Virus record (IMG/VR): IMGVR_UViG_2529293239_000005
Location: 1 to 14,743 of that record
Origin: a virus
Taxonomy: Duplodnaviria > Heunggongvirae > Uroviricota > Caudoviricetes
Direction: 5' to 3' (one strand)
DNA length: 14,743 nucleotides
The notes below the pieces were generated by a model. The model was not told where the DNA came from and ran no database searches. It worked only from the letters and a program-made list of their open reading frames with translations. This document shows positions 1 to 14,157 of this stretch, piece by piece; position 1 is the stretch's first letter; each line of letters starts with the position of its first letter. The position numbers and the translations under genes were made by a program.

Positions 1-77
1 CGTTGTTTTGGTGTGCTTCGCTGTCATAGGCTTTATCTCACAGCAGTAAATTAAAATTTTTGCGTTTTAACCCTTCA

Positions 78-302
78 CCTGTTCACCTTTTGATATTTTC
101 TCTTTTAATTCATAATGTTAAGGGGTGAACAGTTTCACAAAAACTATTCACCAACTGTTCACCACTGTTCACCCTTGAAGCTCAATAAACAATCAAAAAG
201 GTGAACAGTGAATAGTTTGGTGAACAGTTCATAAACAACTGTTCACCCTATAATATACTGATATAAAAGATATTTATGACAGGGTGAACAGTGGTGAACA
301 GT
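78..302. repeat. Iteron array, candidate replication origin: 10-bp unit GGTGAACAGT / ACTGTTCACC
   Basis: Perfect copies forward at 124-133, 200-209, 219-228, 283-292, 293-302 and reverse at 154-163, 164-173, 238-247; 9/10 copies at 78-87, 143-152, 208-216. AT-rich spacer 249-277 (possible unwinding element). Starts 13 bp past the primase stop codon (315-317). Confidence 0.6.
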
Positions 303-314
303 TATTCCATAAGT

Positions 315-2132
315 TTAATTTTTGCTATCGTCATTAGTGACCGATACACATGATGGCATCCAGTCTTCTGATTCCTCCGTCAGTGTCACGTTTGAACGCA
401 AACCGTGCTTCGTTTTCCGTTTCATATACTCCCTGCCATATTCCGCCATTGCCCCCGGCATATCTTTACCGAAGCGCGTCAGTGTTACAGGTTTACCAAA
501 CCCATGTGCCCTCATATAAGCCAGATAGGCATGATAGAGATACCTGCGTGGGCTGAATGGCACAATTTCAGCATTACCCACTAACAGGCCATCACACATT
601 ACCGACGCCATGAGATAGCCGCAGAAGTCCACCAGCGAATCCCCCTCTCGCTTTATCGCCAGTGCTTCTTCAGATTTCTGCTGCTCATATAACAGGCGTC
701 TGGCTTCGTCCTGGTCAGCAAACCGTGTAAGCAGATGGCGAATCACTACCGCCAGCTCACCTTCTATTTTTTCCGCCAGCATTGGATCGCGTTCGTTCTC
801 CGGTACAACTTCCGAAAAATTGAATATCACCCGACGACGTGAGATCCCCCCGCTGCGGTCACTGAATGACATGGCGTTATTGTTAACCGCCAGCACTACT
901 GCCGGAATACGCGTTGAGTAGGGGGCTTTGTGTTTTGGGTCAATTGCCACCTTGTCACCGCCTGTAATGGCCTTAATTCCTGCCCCATCACCAGCGTAGC
1001 GGGTCATATCCGGCATGATAATCAGCGAAAAGCCAACCACTAACGCGCGTTCCCTTGCATCTTCCAGCGCCTTCATGCTTGCCGATACTGTGTTGGCCTT
1101 ACCCGCCAGCATGGTGCAAATCTCCGCCATCACGCTTTTACCACTTCCCCCTGGACCTGTTACCTCAATGAATAACTGCCAGTCGTACCGGTTCGCCAGC
1201 ACCATGAATAATGCAGCCAGTACGCGATCCGCCTTGCGGTCATTCTCAGCCACCGAACGGCGTAACCACTTCCAGAAATTCGGCGCATGTGTTGCCAGCG
1301 TTTCCCCCTCTGCTGGTGGGCTGAAAGGTAATTCACTGGCAATTAACAACCAGTCGTTTTTGTTATGCTCCCGAAAATTACCTGTTCTGGTATCAAATAC
1401 CCCGTTACTGAATCCAATCAGGTTACGGGCTGTATTCCCCATTACAGGCAAACTTAACTTCATGGTATCGACCGCCGATTTAATGGCGTTCTGCGAATAG
1501 CTGATCTCCGCATCAATGAAAATCTGTGCCATAGCTCGCTGTAATTCTTTATCCTGTACTGGCTCCCATACAACGCCGTTGTAATGGTGAACAGTGTCAG
1601 AGTCAGCATGAATCGCCAGTTCACCGCCATAATGTGCCAGGAGAACTTCGCCGCGTTGACTTGCTCCCATCTGGTTAAGCGCCAGTGATGAAGCGTTATC
1701 GTCTTTTACCCGCTCTTTTTTCTTTACAGGCAGTTCAACTACCTTTTTCTTTTCCGCCTGCTCTGCCCGTTCACGTTCCAGATATTCACGCCAGTTCTCC
1801 CGTTTCTGGCTGTGCATTCCTTCAGGGTAATAATCAGCATCCCTGACACCTGCCGCTGCCAGTTTCTGCCCGATGGTATTAACAAGCCCCGGACGCAATA
1901 ACCCCGCCTGATAGAGACGCACGCGATAGCGTCCGTCCGGTACGATTTGCAGGTTGTCCAGTTCGGCAAGTTGTTGCTCTCCAAGCCAGACAGGAGGCAC
2001 GTTATCGCCAGCCAGTCGCCCGTCCTGTTCCTGCCACTGATTCGCATGTGCCCACGCATCACTACCCGCAAAAATGATGACTTCCGTCATTTTGTCACGC
2101 GGCTGGTGTTTTAAATTTGGCGCTTTTTTCAT
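315..2132 (-). CDS. Replication protein, P4 alpha-like primase / SF3-type helicase (pri-rep)
   Basis: Long ORF with Walker A P-loop GPGGSGKS and downstream hydrophobic Walker B-like stretch, as in phage/plasmid primase C-terminal NTPase domains. Start placed at ATG 2132 (GGAGAGAG SD upstream; ATGA overlap with upstream ORF stop) rather than the GTG at 2147 used by the ORF track. Iterons lie immediately 3'. Confidence 0.75.
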   Translation of the reverse strand: MKKAPNLKHQPRDKMTEVIIFAGSDAWAHANQWQEQDGRLAGDNVPPVWLGEQQLAELDNLQIVPDGRYRVRLYQAGLLRPGLVNTIGQKLAAAGVRDADYYPEGMHSQKRENWREYLERERAEQAEKKKVVELPVKKKERVKDDNASSLALNQMGASQRGEVLLAHYGGELAIHADSDTVHHYNGVVWEPVQDKELQRAMAQIFIDAEISYSQNAIKSAVDTMKLSLPVMGNTARNLIGFSNGVFDTRTGNFREHNKNDWLLIASELPFSPPAEGETLATHAPNFWKWLRRSVAENDRKADRVLAALFMVLANRYDWQLFIEVTGPGGSGKSVMAEICTMLAGKANTVSASMKALEDARERALVVGFSLIIMPDMTRYAGDGAGIKAITGGDKVAIDPKHKAPYSTRIPAVVLAVNNNAMSFSDRSGGISRRRVIFNFSEVVPENERDPMLAEKIEGELAVVIRHLLTRFADQDEARRLLYEQQKSEEALAIKREGDSLVDFCGYLMASVMCDGLLVGNAEIVPFSPRRYLYHAYLAYMRAHGFGKPVTLTRFGKDMPGAMAEYGREYMKRKTKHGLRSNVTLTEESEDWMPSCVSVTNDDSKN

Positions 2133-3676: not shown

Positions 3677-3901
3677 CTAGGCTGCCTTACCTGAATTAAC
3701 GCGGTCACGGCTTTGCACCCAGTCCATAACTTCGGAAAGCAACCAGCCTACAGAACGCCCCCCAAGATTACGGCGAGACGGAAAGCCCCCTTTCTTCTCC
3801 AGTTCGTAGCGTGTAGTACGGCTGACGCCTGTTAACTTACGACATTCATCCTCACGAATTACGCGATCTGTTAGTGATTGAAATTGTGTATTTTGATTCA
3901 T
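3677..3901 (-). CDS. alpA: AlpA/Vis-family phage transcriptional regulator (MerR-like HTH)
   Basis: 74-aa ORF with AlpA-family pattern (...FP...GGRSVGW...E...W...). ATG 3901..3899; C-terminus GKAA verified codon by codon. Confidence 0.8.
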   Translation of the reverse strand: MNQNTQFQSLTDRVIREDECRKLTGVSRTTRYELEKKGGFPSRRNLGGRSVGWLLSEVMDWVQSRDRVNSGKAA

Positions 3902-4004: not shown

Positions 4005-4859
4005 TTAATTTTCATTAGATAACATTTTTCTTATTTTTTCTAAAGAATCGCTGCGCATTATTTTTTCTAAGAAGGGTTTTACAGTCTGAGCAATAGCAAA
4101 GGTGTCCTTTTCACCATCAGGATACAAAGATACGGCAAGCACCCCTAATGAAATTTTTCTATCTGTAGACAACTCCCAAGATAATAAGTCAATTAATGGG
4201 ATTATCTTATAATCAATAATTTTACGTCGTATGCTCTCCCAACTTCCTGCAATTGGTTTGTCTGGCTCAACAATTGAAAGTTCACTACGCCATTTTGGTA
4301 ATAGTTTTGTAAACGCTTCAATCAACTCATCATCTCTGTTATGTAGTAAGTCAACAGAAACAAGCATATTATCTAATGTATCAGAAAGGAGATTCACTGG
4401 TTCACGCATCACAGCCCAAAACATCCCATTATCTTCTGATATTAAACTTCCAACCATCTCATTATCTATGATGATTGGTTTATCCTTCCAATATCCTCTT
4501 TCCGCAGTCAGTTTATTAATCATTGATATATCAAACCTTGTTACAGGTTTAATTCCATCATCATAACTTAGCTCAATTAACTTCGGCTGCACTTTATGGT
4601 CATATTCTTTTTGTTTATCACAAAACCAATCGTCTTCTTTAAGCTCTCCAAATGGATCCCCGTAATTATTATGCAACGGGTATTCAGCACCAAACATAAA
4701 ACCATATTCAGGCATCTCAGAATGTTTCATTGTTAAATCATCTTGTCGCCAATATAATTGGCGAAATAGATCTTTATCCGACAAGTTTTCTAGGCAATCA
4801 TATTTGCCTAAATCAAATGACTTTGGTAAATCTTTTTTACTATTTACTTTTTTCGTCAT
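4005..4859 (-). CDS. Hypothetical protein, 284 aa; AT-rich cargo gene between int and alpA
   Basis: ATG at 4859..4857 overlaps the integrase TGA (4858..4856) as ATGA; GAGAGGG SD 5-6 nt upstream. Visibly AT-rich versus neighbours (estimated by eye, not computed). No recognisable catalytic motif. Confidence 0.7.
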   Translation of the reverse strand: MTKKVNSKKDLPKSFDLGKYDCLENLSDKDLFRQLYWRQDDLTMKHSEMPEYGFMFGAEYPLHNNYGDPFGELKEDDWFCDKQKEYDHKVQPKLIELSYDDGIKPVTRFDISMINKLTAERGYWKDKPIIIDNEMVGSLISEDNGMFWAVMREPVNLLSDTLDNMLVSVDLLHNRDDELIEAFTKLLPKWRSELSIVEPDKPIAGSWESIRRKIIDYKIIPLIDLLSWELSTDRKISLGVLAVSLYPDGEKDTFAIAQTVKPFLEKIMRSDSLEKIRKMLSNEN

Positions 4860-6076
4860 TGTATCCCTCTCAATATCACAATATTTTCTTTATATCCTGC
4901 AATCATATCAAGACGCTCAACCCATAGATTCAGTGCGTCCCGTTTCGCCTGCAAATAGCGTGAATGGTTATAGGTTTTTTGCTGACCTGGCATCTGATGC
5001 GCTGTGATGTGCTCCACGATATGCGGATCGACACCTAAATCATTCAGCATAGTTGTAAACGTGTGTCGGAAATCATGCAGCGTCCAGTGTTCCTGCTTAA
5101 GCCGCTTATGCGCATTTCGTCCATATTGCGCCACCGTGGTATCTTTTTTCAGTTCGCCGAGTAATAACCCAGTGTGTGCGTTTTGCTCCACCAGCTTCTG
5201 AATGAACGGCAAAATGCCATCAGGAATAGGTCGGAATATTGTTACCTTCGTTTTGCTGTGCTCTTTTGGCACTGTCCACAACATTTCTTTCAGATCCCAT
5301 TCTTTGATCTCTGAAAGTCTGATCTCTGCCGTTCTGCACCCGAACACAATTAACAAGCGCATTAACGCACTGTAATAGGGAGCGAACACATCACCATCAA
5401 TAGCGCGTAGAATTTCTTTTAGTTCGCTGTTGCTGTGCACTCTCTCGCGGATTTCTGCTCTCTTACCCACATCAGTAACGATCAAATCGTCCAGGGCGTT
5501 GCTAAACGCGTAGCGCCGCCTGCGGCAAAACTTTAGCGCCTGTTTGCATGTCTGCATGACATGGCCCGCTGCTACTGGTGCTTTTTTTCGTACGCGGTCA
5601 AAACATGTGATCCACTGCCTTGTATCACACTTATCAAGGGGAATTGCCCCGATATGGCAAATGATGTGCTTATCCATACGCTGCACCAGCTTTATGTAAT
5701 CTTTGCGGTTATCCTTCGCGTATTCCTCCAGCCAGTAGTTAATCGCTTCCTTCACCGTAACGGGTTTTAGTGCTTCCTGTACTGTGGCGCACAACTCATA
5801 CCGAGGGTTTTTACCCTCAGCCAGCCATGCCCGGCACTGTGTTCGCTTTTCCCTTGCAGATTTCAGCGACAATTCCGGGTAAGCCCCCAGCTTTAACCGC
5901 TCTGCGGCAACCTCACGGCCTCCCGTTCGGTACCGGAAATACCAGGTTAATTTGCCTCCCTTTGAGTGTTTAATCTCCAGCCCGCCCCCGTCGGAGTAAA
6001 AACGCTCTTTTTCTGCCTGGACAGCCACCAATTTTTTTAACGTTGAATCGCTCAGTTTGTTTAGTGCTTTTCCCAC
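4856..6076 (-). CDS. int: P4-type tyrosine integrase / site-specific recombinase
   Basis: 406-aa ORF; N-terminus typical of P4-family integrases (LSDSTLKKL...GKLTWYFRYR); C-terminal catalytic signature HDFRHTF and tyrosine in KTYNHSRY. GTG start at 6076 with AGAGGA SD 7 nt upstream. Confidence 0.9.
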   Translation of the reverse strand: MGKALNKLSDSTLKKLVAVQAEKERFYSDGGGLEIKHSKGGKLTWYFRYRTGGREVAAERLKLGAYPELSLKSAREKRTQCRAWLAEGKNPRYELCATVQEALKPVTVKEAINYWLEEYAKDNRKDYIKLVQRMDKHIICHIGAIPLDKCDTRQWITCFDRVRKKAPVAAGHVMQTCKQALKFCRRRRYAFSNALDDLIVTDVGKRAEIRERVHSNSELKEILRAIDGDVFAPYYSALMRLLIVFGCRTAEIRLSEIKEWDLKEMLWTVPKEHSKTKVTIFRPIPDGILPFIQKLVEQNAHTGLLLGELKKDTTVAQYGRNAHKRLKQEHWTLHDFRHTFTTMLNDLGVDPHIVEHITAHQMPGQQKTYNHSRYLQAKRDALNLWVERLDMIAGYKENIVILRGIQ

Positions 6077-6112
6077 TATCAGATCCTCTTTTCAGTCCTC
6101 CAGCCTCAAAAA

Positions 6113-6136
6113 ACTGACCACACAACTGACCACACA
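6113..6136. repeat. Perfect tandem direct repeat ACTGACCACACA x2, 37-60 bp upstream of the int start
   Basis: Copies at 6113-6124 and 6125-6136, followed by a CA-rich low-complexity tract (about 6140-6250). Candidate regulator or integrase arm-type binding sites. Confidence 0.5.
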
Positions 6137-6457
6137 TTTCGCTGAAGCTCGGCAAACAACAACGAACAGCAACAAACAAGAAAGCTAATTAAATCATTGT
6201 ATATCAAACACATACACAAACAATCACGAACATCCCCGAACTACAAAAAACACTAAATGAGAAAATACGGGTATTTCTCAGCCTTCACAAAGAAGGGCAC
6301 CCCGAGTCATTTAAAACAAAATCAAAAGATTGCGATTAACGTCCCGTTAATCCCTGTTCTGGATCATGCCAGCGGAAAGCCAAAGACTCAACCCTAAAAA
6401 ATCCTCTGTGTCCCAGTTTGTGTCTCACGTTGTGGCCCACAGATAAATGGCAGGCAC

Positions 6458-6482
6458 AAAAAAACCGCCCATAAGGCGGCTT
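6458..6482 (-). terminator. Rho-independent terminator (minus strand)
   Basis: Minus strand reads CCGCC-ttatg-GGCGG followed by TTTTTTT (plus strand A-run 6458-6464), 37 nt past the stop of the 6519-6701 ORF. Confidence 0.5.
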
Positions 6483-6518
6483 AAGTAAATTATTCAGTCG
6501 TGAAGATTTAAATGAAAT

Positions 6519-6701
6519 CTATTTTCTGCATACGCTTTCTTCATGCAGTCGAAGTGCTTTTGCCAATTCCAATTGGAATGCAAAGGAAAGACGGGAACGG
6601 CTGATCTTGATACCGTCAATAATGATGTATGTAGGGTAAACAGTGACCATGCGGCCCAAGTATTGGAAGTGTTTAGGGTGGTTTACTTTATCGTTATTCA
6701 T
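6519..6701 (-). CDS. Hypothetical small protein, 60 aa from the ATG (ORF track extends to a TTG at 6770)
   Basis: In-frame ATG at 6701..6699; followed by an intrinsic terminator. Weak SD, no recognisable motif; may be a gene fragment. Confidence 0.3.
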   Translation of the reverse strand: MNNDKVNHPKHFQYLGRMVTVYPTYIIIDGIKISRSRLSFAFQLELAKALRLHEESVCRK

Positions 6702-7756
6702 TGTGTGCCATCCGTCTGGGTGGGGGTAATCCCGGCAACGGATGATTGATCTAAAATCGATCAAAATCAATAACTTAACAGATCACCAAATCCAGGGGGG
6801 TGTACATTGGCGAGCCTCCCTCAGCCTAACCTATACACGACCATAAAATAGGGGCGGATTCCTTCCAGTTGGGTGGGAAAATATCTGGGAGTTTGGATAC
6901 AGTAGCCAGGCAGGGTAACCAGACCCATAGATGAGAATGTTTATTATTCCCAAATATCCAGGCGAGGGGCCTGCTGTGGCTCTCTTTACGCGCCGCTGTG
7001 GCGTCTTCTCTCCTCTTTCTATACAATCCCATAGCTAACCCATTGCGAGGCTTACAGAGCGTTACAGAGCGTCCGTGTGAATATTGCATAAATGAAAGTG
7101 GTGAAAGGTCCGATTTGGTCAACTTTTAGACAACTATTTAACATATGCGCAACAGGTTAGACCTGTACCCTTTCAATAGGTCCGCCTCCTGGGCGCTGTG
7201 TACGCCCCATAACTGTGGCTCTTCTGTACCCATCCGGGAGCCATTCCACAGAGTAAACTGTAAAACTGATCTGCCTGTGAGTAACGCCCTTTTCCTGTGG
7301 ATAACTTCCACGCACTAACCCCATAAACTCCCCTTTTGAGGCGTCCGCCTCTTCAGGCCCTTTCTTGTGGCAAAAACACAAAAAGGGTTTAGGGCGGTGG
7401 CTACCGCCCCTGTAGATGGGAATGAGTCGCACTCGAAAGAGGGATTGAGAACCAATTCTCAAGTGATAATCGATCTCATTTGTGTTCGAAGTTTTCCCCA
7501 GAAAAATAATTTTGGGGTTAAGCATGTAAAATGCTACACACTTGCACTTTGTAATGATAATTAATTGACCATAAAAACAAATAGTTAGAAGCGCTGGGGG
7601 AGTCCCACTAGTTACACAATTGATTGCTTTTTGAGCTAAAACTGATTCTTTTACCGGGTATACAATCCATTTGATCGCCCTTTACCACATATTTAAACGG
7701 ATTTAAAGCCATTTATTTAGGGGGTTAGCAAAGTGTTGATTCCATGGTTACAGATA

Positions 7757-7894: not shown

Positions 7895-9413
7895 CTATCC
7901 ATCCTGCACTTTCACATTAACGTTCACGTTTAGCGGCTGGTTTAGCCACGCTGGCGGCGTCATCAGTGGATTACCTGCCATATCAACTTTAAGCTGTGGC
8001 GCTGTAATCGTCGGCGTAGGAGGTACATAAGTTGGATTGGAGTAAGAGCTTACCCACCCTGTTTTATCTGCTGGTTTGGCAAAGTCTGGATTAGTCGGAA
8101 GGTCTGGACTATGGAGGAAATCCCACAGTTTACCCAGCGGGCTATCTTTTTTCAGATTGCCCCCGGCGGTGGTGTCCTGTCCATACATGGCGTCGTTAGC
8201 GTCATGACCTTATCCCAGGCATAATCCCCACCTACCGAACCGACCGCAATGCTCCAGCCAACAGGACCGCCAGAGAGAGCCGCCGCGCCGCCTACCTTGC
8301 CAACTTTCGGACCCCGACCCGGTTTGTTTGGCTTGTCTTTACCTTCCCCACCAGATCCGCCAGTAGTAGCGGCTTCAATGCCACCAATAGCGGCGATCCC
8401 TTTCATGACCCCCAGTAATTTGGTTAGTGGGTTAAGCATGGTCAACAACCATTTAAAGGCTACGCCCAACTTCCAGATAGACCCGGCGAACATAGCCACC
8501 CCGGCGGCGTATGCTGCCATTTCGCCCCAGGCTTTAAGCTGCTCACCAGTGATCCCCATCTTGCTGGCGTAATACTCAATAATGCGGAAGGTCAGGATCA
8601 CAGTGTCATGCAACTCTGTAAACGCATCTGTGGCACCCTCAACGATTTTCCCGGCAATATGCCCGAACATCTCAAAGGCCCCACCAGAGCCGTTAACAGC
8701 GGCGCTGATAGCGTCGAAAGCGCTGGTTAATTCGTTGCCGAAGCCAGAAGCAAAGAAGATGTTCATCGCGTTCTGCATACTGGTTTGCAGGCGCTGCCAG
8801 CTTGCCCGGTTGGACTTCATAGCCTTATCCAGAGCGCCGCCGTTACGAGCTGCGGCTTTCATCTGTTTAGCCACTTCCGGGAGGATGTCCTTAGAGAACA
8901 GCTTCCCTTGTTGCATCAGGTCAAACAGATCCTTTTCTGTAAGGTTGGTTGTCCCTTTCATCTGGTTGAGAGCCTTAACGAACAGACCCACAGCCCCCGG
9001 GAGAGCTTCGGACAACTGGCCTTTGAGTTCTTCACTCATTACCGTTCCTTTAGACATCATCTGATTCAAACTTTTCAAAGCGCGGCTGGCTTCATCGGCT
9101 GAAGCACCTGTAACAAGGCCCCATTCACTGGCACCCTCAAAGATGGATCGCATCTGGTCTTTAGGGAGCTTGTCACCAACAGCGGCGGCAAACTGAGTGT
9201 AATCACGGGAAGTCTTGAGGAGATCCAGCCCCAAACGGTTGGATTGATCACGGAGATAATCAAACTCTTTAGCGGCCTTATCTGTGGAACCGGTGATCGC
9301 TGTCAGACCAGAAAGCGCGGATTCAAAATCCTGTCCGGTGGTCATGATCTTGCCGCTCAGCGCCACAGTTGCGGCAATGGTGATCGCCCCGCCTGCACCC
9401 TCGATCATGGAGG
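7895..9413 (-). pseudogene. Phage tail tape-measure protein gene remnant: 5'-truncated by IS629 and frameshifted
   Basis: ORF 8152-9408 has the Ala/Gly/Leu/Ser-rich, low-complexity composition recalled for tape-measure N-terminal regions (e.g. the stretch ...ELKGQLSEALPGAVGLFVKALNQM...). Its reading frame stays open up to the IS boundary at 9414. ORF 7895-8188 continues in a different frame with a 37-bp overlap, implying a 1-bp indel near 8204-8215. Confidence 0.7.
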
Positions 9414-12123: not shown

Positions 12124-14157
12124 ATGACTCAAGTCGCGAAGAAAATTCTGGTGACGTGCGCACTGCCGTACGCTAACGGCTCAATCCACCTCGGCCATAT
12201 GCTGGAGCACATCCAGGCTGATGTCTGGGTCCGTTACCAGCGAATGCGCGGCCACGAGGTCAACTTCATCTGCGCCGACGATGCCCACGGTACACCGATC
12301 ATGCTGAAAGCTCAGCAGCTTGGTATCACCCCGGAGCAGATGATTGGCGAAATGAGTCAGGAGCATCAGACTGATTTCGCAGGCTTTAACATCAGCTATG
12401 ACAACTATCACTCGACACACAGCGAAGAGAACCGCCAGTTGTCAGAACTTATCTACTCTCGCCTGAAAGAAAACGGTTTTATTAAAAACCGCACCATCTC
12501 TCAGCTGTACGATCCGGAAAAAGGCATGTTCCTGCCGGACCGTTTTGTGAAAGGCACCTGCCCGAAATGTAAATCCCCGGATCAATACGGCGATAACTGC
12601 GAAGTCTGCGGCGCGACCTACAGCCCGACTGAACTGATCGAGCCGAAATCGGTGGTTTCTGGCGCTACCCCGGTAATGCGTGATTCTGAACACTTCTTCT
12701 TTGATCTGCCCTCTTTCAGCGAAATGTTGCAGGCATGGACCCGCAGCGGTGCGTTGCAGGAGCAGGTGGCAAACAAAATGCAGGAGTGGTTTGAATCTGG
12801 CCTGCAACAGTGGGATATCTCCCGCGACGCACCTTACTTCGGTTTTGAAATTCCGAACGCGCCGGGCAAATATTTCTACGTCTGGCTGGACGCACCGATT
12901 GGCTACATGGGTTCTTTCAAGAATCTGTGCGACAAGCGCGGCGACAGCGTAAGCTTCGATGAATACTGGAAGAAAGACTCCACCGCCGAGCTGTACCACT
13001 TCATCGGTAAAGATATCGTTTACTTCCACAGCCTGTTCTGGCCTGCCATGCTGGAAGGCAGCAACTTCCGCAAGCCGACCAACCTGTTTGTTCATGGCTA
13101 TGTGACGGTGAACGGCGCGAAGATGTCCAAGTCTCGCGGCACCTTTATTAAAGCCAGCACCTGGCTGAATCATTTTGACGCAGACAGCCTGCGTTACTAC
13201 TACACTGCGAAACTCTCTTCGCGCATCGATGATATCGATCTCAACCTGGAAGATTTCGTTCAGCGTGTGAATGCCGATATCGTTAACAAAGTGGTTAACC
13301 TGGCCTCCCGTAATGCGGGCTTTATCAACAAGCGTTTTGACGGCGTGCTGGCAAGCGAACTGGCTGACCCGCAGTTGTACAAAACCTTCACTGATGCCGC
13401 TGAAGTGATTGGTGAAGCGTGGGAAAGCCGTGAATTTGGTAAAGCCGTGCGCGAAATCATGGCGCTGGCTGATCTGGCTAACCGCTATGTCGATGAACAG
13501 GCTCCGTGGGTGGTGGCGAAACAGGAAAGCCGCGATGCCGACCTGCAGGCAATTTGCTCAATGGGCATCAACCTGTTCCGCGTGCTGATGACTTACCTGA
13601 AGCCGGTACTGCCGAAACTGACCGAGCGTGCAGAAGCATTCCTCAATACGGAACTGACCTGGGATGGTATCCAGCAACCGCTGCTGGGCCACAAAGTGAA
13701 TCCGTTCAAGGCGCTGTATAACCGCATCGATATGAGGCAGGTTGAAGCACTGGTGGAAGCCTCTAAAGAAGAAGTAAAAGCCGCTGCCGCGCCGGTAACT
13801 GGCCCGCTGGCAGATGATCCGATTCAGGAAACCATCACCTTTGACGACTTCGCTAAAGTTGACCTGCGCGTGGCGCTGATTGAAAACGCAGAGTTTGTTG
13901 AAGGTTCTGACAAACTGCTGCGCCTGACGCTGGATCTCGGCGGTGAAAAACGCAATGTCTTCTCCGGTATTCGTTCTGCTTACCCGGATCCGCAGGCACT
14001 GATTGGTCGTCACACCATTATGGTGGCTAACCTAGCACCACGTAAAATGCGCTTCGGTATCTCTGAAGGCATGGTGATGGCTGCCGGTCCTGGCGGGAAA
14101 GATATTTTCCTGCTAAGCCCGGATGCCGGTGCTAAACCGGGTCATCAGGTGAAATAA
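12124..14157 (+). CDS. metG: Methionyl-tRNA synthetase
   Basis: 677-aa protein [26 protein letters not shown]... with HIGH-type motif (HLGH), KMSKS, zinc knuckle CPKC...C..CG and C-terminal tRNA-binding domain. Start taken as the second ATG (12124), matching the E. coli MetG N-terminus. Confidence 0.97.

Follow-up and report, generated by a model that had tools for sequence, protein, structure and literature searches.

What is the function of a dense cluster of short repeats, in both orientations, that lies next to a predicted primase gene in the virus record IMGVR_UViG_2529293239_000005 of IMG/VR (Caudoviricetes)? We analyzed the whole stretch of 14,743 nucleotides, referred to here as the window, which is a segment of an Escherichia coli chromosome and matches strain FCI56 (locus L001) at 100% identity over its first 2.4 kb. 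The cluster, an array of iterons at positions 70 to 302, is located directly 3' of the gene pri-rep, which encodes an initiator of the superfamily 3 (SF3) helicase type related to the alpha protein of satellite phage P4. We are confident that this array is the replication origin of a phage-inducible chromosomal island (PICI) of the EcCI224 type and that it is bound by the product of the adjacent gene. The assignment to P4-alpha-type PICI origins is based on (i) the homology of the initiator to P4 alpha, (ii) the iteron and the layout shared with P4, (iii) the identity of the element with EcCI224, (iv) the conservation of the array across genera, and (v) the covariation of the iteron with a putative wing segment of the initiator.

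Architecture of the iteron array

The repeated unit is the 10-mer GGTGAACAGT, which includes TGTTCACC, the word annotated in P4 as "ori type 1 repeat". Five exact copies on the plus strand start at positions 124, 200, 219, 283, and 293, and three on the minus strand at 154, 164, and 238. These eight copies within 124 to 302 compare with an expectation of 0.03 for the whole 14.7-kb window, and none of 200 shuffled sequences reached the window total of nine, so the density is far above chance, as initially proposed. Four degenerate sites were also found, at 78 to 87 (minus strand, 1 mismatch), 143 to 152 (minus, 1), 207 to 216 (plus, 2), and 70 to 79 (minus, 2), resulting in 12 sites within 233 bp. 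The array contains nine exact TGTTCACC cores, with several copies in both orientations. The initial annotation had reported eight perfect and about three degenerate copies in both orientations between 78 and 302, with a single AT-rich spacer. The perfect copies, the AT-rich spacing, and the right end are retained here, whereas the degenerate copies number four, the left end lies about 8 nucleotides (nt) further out, and there are two AT-rich spacers. The parts of the array are as follows.

70 to 302, no strand assigned: whole iteron array (putative ori), with 12 sites in two mirror-image units about a 26-bp centre
200 to 302, plus strand: gene-proximal unit, each site of which has an aligned counterpart in the P4 ori core (L002, 9310 to 9415)
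70 to 173, minus strand: gene-distal unit, the mirror of the proximal one according to its site positions
248 to 282, no strand assigned: AT-rich spacer 1 (80% A+T, lowest duplex stability), predicted DNA-unwinding element
88 to 123, no strand assigned: AT-rich spacer 2 (81% A+T), second predicted unwinding element
174 to 199, no strand assigned: central spacer of 26 bp dividing the mirrored units

In the gene-proximal unit, three plus-strand GGTGAACAGT sites (200 to 209, 207 to 216, and 219 to 228, the second with 2 mismatches) and an inverted site (238 to 247) are followed by AT-rich spacer 1 and by the sites at 283 to 292 and 293 to 302. The gene-distal unit consists correspondingly of sites at 164 to 173, 154 to 163, and 143 to 152 (1 mismatch), an inverted site at 124 to 133, AT-rich spacer 2, and the sites at 78 to 87 (1 mismatch) and 70 to 79 (2 mismatches). 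Read on the gene-sense strand, the order is thus 2 sites, 35 bp of AT-rich DNA, 1 inverted site, 13 nt, 3 sites, the centre, and then the mirror image. Start-to-start distances within site pairs are 10 bp, that is, one helical turn, and 12 nt separate the end of the array at 302 from the stop codon of the minus-strand gene (315 to 317). Both AT-rich spacers measure 35 to 36 bp with approximately 80% A+T. The least stable 31-bp duplex of the entire window is located in the first of them (248 to 278; -28.5 kcal/mol compared with a mean of -42.0 and a standard deviation of 3.8), and the fifth least stable in the second (92 to 122).

The ninth exact copy of GGTGAACAGT in the window is found within the gene, at 1586 to 1595, where it encodes T-V-H-H of a conserved peptide. 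We considered an internal origin at this position and rejected it: relatives keep the peptide DTVHH while synonymous positions vary. Since the peptide and not the DNA word is conserved, this copy is a coding coincidence. An inverted copy with 2 mismatches, also intragenic, is present 20 bp away, at 1616 to 1625. On the other side of the array, an AT-rich tail past the last iteron (approximately 40 to 68; AAACGCAAAAATTTTAATTT) can be aligned across several genera; it might serve in unwinding as well, bind a host factor, or belong to a promoter.

The adjacent initiator compared with P4 and published PICI origins

The gene next to the array is intact, and its product of 605 to 610 amino acids (aa) is annotated as "DNA primase family protein"; an alternative start codon, GTG, is located at 2147. 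The following features were identified in its open reading frame (ORF).

315 to 2132, minus strand: pri-rep, P4-alpha-type SF3 helicase-initiator with the Pfam domains D5_N, DUF5906 (SF3 ATPase), and Pox_D5 C-terminal domain
354 to 644, minus strand: region coding for the C-terminal winged-helix origin-binding domain (aa 502 to 598 of the 610-aa ORF)
387 to 425, minus strand: region coding for the putative wing segment MKRKTKHGLRSNV (aa 575 to 587), which covaries with the iteron core across relatives
1686 to 2132, minus strand: region coding for an N-terminal, TOPRIM-like domain of 149 aa that stands in place of the DnaG-type primase domain of P4 alpha

Residues 150 to 600 of the pri-rep product are 51% identical to P4 alpha. 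The C-terminal residues 502 to 598 match PDB entry 1KA8, the origin-binding winged-helix domain of P4 alpha (phmmer E value of 1.8e-24), and the DNA-binding domains of both proteins share 47% identity over 106 aa. From the winged-helix topology (PMC2777425), we infer that the MKRKTKHGLRSNV segment corresponds to the beta-hairpin wing. The N-terminal parts of the two proteins are unrelated: P4 alpha, a 777-aa protein, carries a DnaG-type zinc-finger primase domain, which is missing from the pri-rep product. Of the earlier description of a primase gene with the array directly 3' to it, the position is correct, and the primase label calls for refinement.

The origin regions are also alike. The P4 GenBank record annotates TGTTCACC as a type 1 repeat in both ori (9310 to 9413) and crr (4291 to 4590), the latter being located directly 3' of alpha (coding sequence 4636 to 6969) and containing type 1 repeats in both orientations. 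The binding of these iterons by P4 alpha is taken from the GenBank annotation, the name of the PDB entry, PMC2777425, and general background. P4 and the island thus share an identical iteron core, with the full 10-mer GGTGAACAGT present in P4 ori, as well as an iteron cluster directly 3' of the initiator gene. In the P4 ori core, the order is GGTGAACAGT GGTGAACAGA cGGTGAACAGT, 12 nt, TGTTCACCC, a 35-bp AT-rich stretch, GGTGAACAGA GGTGAACAGT, which corresponds to 2 sites, 35 bp of AT-rich DNA, 1 inverted site, 14 nt, and 3 sites. Both units in the window align with it site for site; P4 crr units are laid out differently. The array thus has the position of crr and the structure of ori, duplicated and inverted. 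P4 differs in having two clusters 4.8 kb apart, whereas the island has a single cluster of two mirrored units. A search for a second TGTTCACC-like cluster in the island was negative, since only window positions 1 to 400 contained at least 4 sites per 300 bp, compared with two such regions in P4. The two elements also differ in gene content: sid, psu, delta, and epsilon are missing from the annotation of the whole island, which has a protease-capsid fusion and a DUF1441 gene instead. The same contrast at the level of the element was observed with a true P4-like locus (L086).

The array was then compared with origins of known PICIs (Fillol-Salom et al., 2018, ISME J, PMC6092414). According to this study, origins of Gram-negative PICIs are located immediately 3' of the initiator gene and consist of two iteron sets around an AT-rich region, an arrangement that occurs twice in the window (70 to 173 and 200 to 302). 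The same source reports that a pri-rep-ori segment of EcCICFT073 maintained a plasmid and that both rep and ori were required. EcCICFT073 has its array at the same position and in the same mirrored layout (2 sites, approximately 40 bp of AT-rich DNA, 1 inverted site, 3 sites, centre, mirror image), and its initiator is homologous (48% identity overall; 64% for the N-terminal domain in a per-domain alignment). In contrast, its iteron is T[GA]TCTACC (TGTCTACC) rather than TGTTCACC, its DNA-binding domain is only 32% identical, and its wing is ITRKVKGVTQTN. Because iteron, domain, and wing all differ, EcCICFT073 very likely belongs to another specificity group. The supplementary text of PMC6092414 does not give iteron sequences, which are found only in a figure. 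The earlier interpretation of gene and array as a rep-ori module is supported by these data, namely, by the P4-alpha-type initiator, the P4 iteron, the Gram-negative PICI layout, and the reported replication of EcCICFT073. The source also states that this origin layout is common to no other known replicon; this seems too strong, since the same unit occurs in P4 ori.

Two other groups of replicons are more distant. Origins of SaPIs and other Gram-positive PICIs, which we set apart by their description, belong to another host clade and have other iteron sequences. Classical iteron plasmids of the pSC101, R6K, RK2, F, and P1 types have repeated initiator sites beside an AT-rich unwinding region, which are recognized by winged-helix domains. 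Their Rep proteins are not helicases and need DnaA and DnaB, whereas the initiator encoded here is itself an SF3 helicase. Neither a non-helicase initiator of the Rep_3/RepA type nor DnaA boxes (at most 1 mismatch, searched in positions 1 to 400) were found.

These features are consistent with the following course of initiation. The island would first be induced and excised, and the C-terminal winged-helix domain of the pri-rep product would then bind the iterons with the TGTTCACC core. Close groups of iterons flank the two 35-bp AT-rich stretches, and their cooperative occupancy could melt these stretches. The SF3 helicase part would self-assemble on the opened DNA as a hexameric helicase, so that pri-rep would provide helicase loading without DnaA or DnaB. 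The mirrored units, each resembling P4 ori, would suit the loading of two hexamers in opposite directions and hence bidirectional theta replication; after priming, synthesis would be completed by host polymerase III.

Conservation of the array and covariation with the putative wing

To compile relatives, one genome per species was scanned, which provided 80 further loci from Enterobacterales; the comparison also included P4, vB_KppS-Ant, and EcCICFT073, and the set comprised 84 homologous loci. The search for iteron clusters beside homologous genes, which the initial annotation had suggested, showed that, where the gene is intact, almost every locus has its own iteron clustered in the 450 bp that follow the stop codon. 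In a few P4-like loci, just 1 to 3 recognizable copies follow the stop codon. The remainder of each 4- to 6-kb locus contains 0 to 2 copies. Among the relatives is vB_KppS-Ant, a 16.5-kb element sequenced from induced particles, whose array is the same and whose protein shares 74.5% identity.

The layout of the array is retained across all iteron types. An alignment of 14 TGTTCACC-class loci, representing several genera, showed 85% conservation in iteron columns, compared with 49% in spacer columns (Mann-Whitney P value of 1.6e-14). The length (35 to 36 bp) and AT-richness of the AT-rich spacers are retained across genera, while their sequence drifts.

The core of the iteron sorts with the part of the binding domain that is bounded by two conserved motifs, EYGxxY and SN, and no discordant loci were observed. 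The following correspondences were found.

Wing of the KRKTKHGxRSN type: iteron T[GA]TTCACC (window, P4, vB_KppS-Ant, and approximately 65 loci)
Wing ending in GPDKGRxxSN: iteron TGTCTACC
Wing IRKKSTKGNMRSN: iteron TCTCCACC
Wing KKAESKKKATRGRIQSN: iteron TGTCCGCC
Wing KKERATRGPSKGNYQSN: iteron TGTCCACC

Only the wing segment separates the iteron classes. We also evaluated the identity of the whole DNA-binding domain as a predictor of the iteron class and discarded it, since domains with 69 to 72% identity can have a different iteron and others with 60 to 64% the same one. The most informative loci are L009 and L014, in which the helicase core is 90 to 91% identical to that of the window protein, yet the wing is of the PDKGR type (KRKQCTRGPDKGRTISNV) and the iterons are TGTCTACC. 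These loci are from Escherichia ruysiae and Kluyvera georgiana, respectively, and a locus of Enterobacter hormaechei (L017) likewise combines another wing with TGTCTACC iterons; cores of the three are 89 to 91% identical. The occurrence of the other wing and iteron beside near-identical cores in L009, L014, and L017 is evidence that wing and origin have been exchanged as a module by recombination.

Many Xenorhabdus and Photorhabdus genomes (L035 to L082) contain several P4-alpha-type loci with proteins of approximately 800 to 840 aa, up to five in Xenorhabdus ehlersii. In each of these loci, the gene is followed by a T[GA]TTCACC cluster; a single genome thus harbours several replicons of one iteron class.

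The EcCI224-type island, alternative readings, and implications

An 11-kb island is inserted between thiM and rcnR, and its right part occupies positions 1 to approximately 6278 of the window. The landmarks in the window are as follows.

3677 to 3901, minus strand: alpA-family regulator of the island
4856 to 6076, minus strand: int, tyrosine integrase of the island
6265 to 6278, minus strand: att core AGAAATACCCGTAT (14 bp), island boundary beside rcnR

A second copy of AGAAATACCCGTAT is located outside the window, beside thiM (L001, 8970 to 8983), and the two copies are 11.3 kb apart. Island genes on the minus strand within the window are int, DUF6387, alpA, Icd-like, DUF4222, and pri-rep; past the window edge follow a prohead protease/capsid fusion, tail-gene fragments, and a DUF1441 gene. 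The island thus has the hallmarks of a PICI, namely, a size of 8 to 15 kb, int and alpA, flanking att repeats, and a single direction of transcription (minus). PICI EcCI224 is listed in Table S1 of PMC6092414, and its att core, insertion site, and size in that entry, where rcnR is given as frmR, agree with those found here. The gene order of EcCI224 is that of the window element (int, DUF6387, alpA, Icd-like, DUF4222, pri-rep, array, protease-capsid fusion, DUF1441), and one aligned base differs between the two arrays. Based on this agreement in att core, insertion site, size, gene order, and array, the element is identified by sequence comparison as a catalogued PICI, of the same type as EcCI224 but in another strain.

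Differences between EcCI224 and the island of FCI56, the closest genome, are not substantive; FCI56 has approximately 0.7 kb more of tail-gene fragments. Located between the capsid fusion and DUF1441 (L001, 10653 to 11383), they comprise a tail assembly gene and a truncated tail gene, both of which are missing from EcCI224 (L087). Portal and terminase genes are found neither in the FCI56 island nor in the EcCI224 copy. Somewhere from position 2400 to the att core, the offset between window and FCI56 coordinates shifts by 1; the two are thus not identical over the full length.

Of 5,426 complete E. coli genomes, 668 contain 80% or more of the array, in most cases with an identity of at least 95%, and there is no RefSeq annotation beneath it. 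Weak blastn matches were obtained in approximately 750 further genomes, some of them being origins of true P4-like satellites, such as that between sid and the vis/alpA gene in L086. Among genomes with a match to the array, the number of matching places has a median of 2 and reaches 12.

Three other readings of the array were weighed against that of an origin. The decay of the FCI56 island, with its truncated tail genes and lack of portal and terminase, would fit an array that looks intact but is a functionally dead remnant. We consider this very unlikely, since the pri-rep ORF is intact, 8 of the 12 sites are perfect, the array differs from that of EcCI224 at one aligned base, and it is widespread at high identity in E. 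coli. Slightly less probable still is a role as an auxiliary cis element similar to crr, which would bind the initiator and stimulate replication that starts elsewhere. The array does share with P4 crr the position 3' of the alpha-type gene and the type 1 repeats in both orientations, but the island has no second cluster, each half is laid out as the P4 ori core and not as crr units, and, as reported in PMC6092414, the homologous EcCICFT073 segment by itself supported replication when combined with rep.

The reading to which we give least credence is that the array serves chiefly as a set of operators, through which the pri-rep product would regulate either its own operon or the downstream packaging and capsid genes, and is no origin. 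Iterons double as operators in many replicons, a scan revealed no terminator between gene and array, and a promoter-like site is present at 232 to 259 (plus strand). However, a single promoter-like site in the scanned region compares with 1.5 expected and is within chance, the array is located 3' of the gene, away from its promoter, and the two unstable 35-bp AT-rich spacers of conserved length fit an unwinding element rather than an operator. The array may still have a regulatory function on the side. Several points nevertheless weigh against an active origin that works as in P4. (i) P4 needs both ori and crr, whereas the island has one cluster, and the P4 mechanism is not transferable in every detail. 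(ii) As the P4-type primase domain is missing, the route of leading-strand priming is not explained by the P4 model. (iii) The lack of a terminator means that transcription of the replication operon reads into the array. (iv) The morphogenesis module looks partly degraded in the closest genome, and this copy of the island may rarely be mobilised.

The identification of the array as the origin of the EcCI224-type island is not new biology: origin type, element, and iteron have each been described before. It provides a functional label for a stretch that RefSeq leaves bare in the 668 genomes mentioned above, and it ties a PICI origin to the well-studied alpha/ori system of P4, a model for which the iteron is known and the structure of the DNA-binding domain has been solved. 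What goes beyond this is modest, namely, the possible cross-talk of origins with P4-like satellites and the correspondence between wing and iteron. With regard to the former, the initial annotation had expected the iteron to predict cross-talk with helper phages; helper phages are not supported as partners, and the predicted ones are instead P4-like satellites as well as further PICIs with TGTTCACC iterons. Since the iteron word, the layout of the unit, the fold of the binding domain, and the type of wing are shared, and since both arrays are common in E. coli, this PICI family and P4-like satellites might fire, titrate, or block each other's origins. With regard to the latter, at least five wing/iteron classes, with cores up to 91% identical, suggest that the wing segment of 13 to 18 residues may be a compact, swappable code for iteron specificity. 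Going from wing segment to iteron core would be a simple sequence rule to sort satellite replicons into likely specificity groups. In addition, the elements that P4 has split into ori and crr may be fused in the PICI origin, which is mirrored and located at a single site. Taken jointly, a shared compatibility group of P4 and PICI origins, a wing code, and a fused ori/crr form a tentative proposal that we regard as possible, if rather doubtful as a whole. If it were true, the wing code could predict which satellites are able to coexist, and the fused ori/crr would contradict the uniqueness of the PICI origin layout claimed in PMC6092414.

Two minor observations concern the surroundings of the island genes. 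A short unannotated ORF of approximately 55 codons, preceded by AGGAGG, was noticed by eye just to the left of the window start (L001, approximately 13830 to 13995, minus strand); it is located downstream of the array and shares the strand of the replication genes. In the chromosomal flank, according to the annotation of the near-identical FCI56, a copy of IS1A at window positions of approximately 8548 to 9245 breaks a fimbrial gene.
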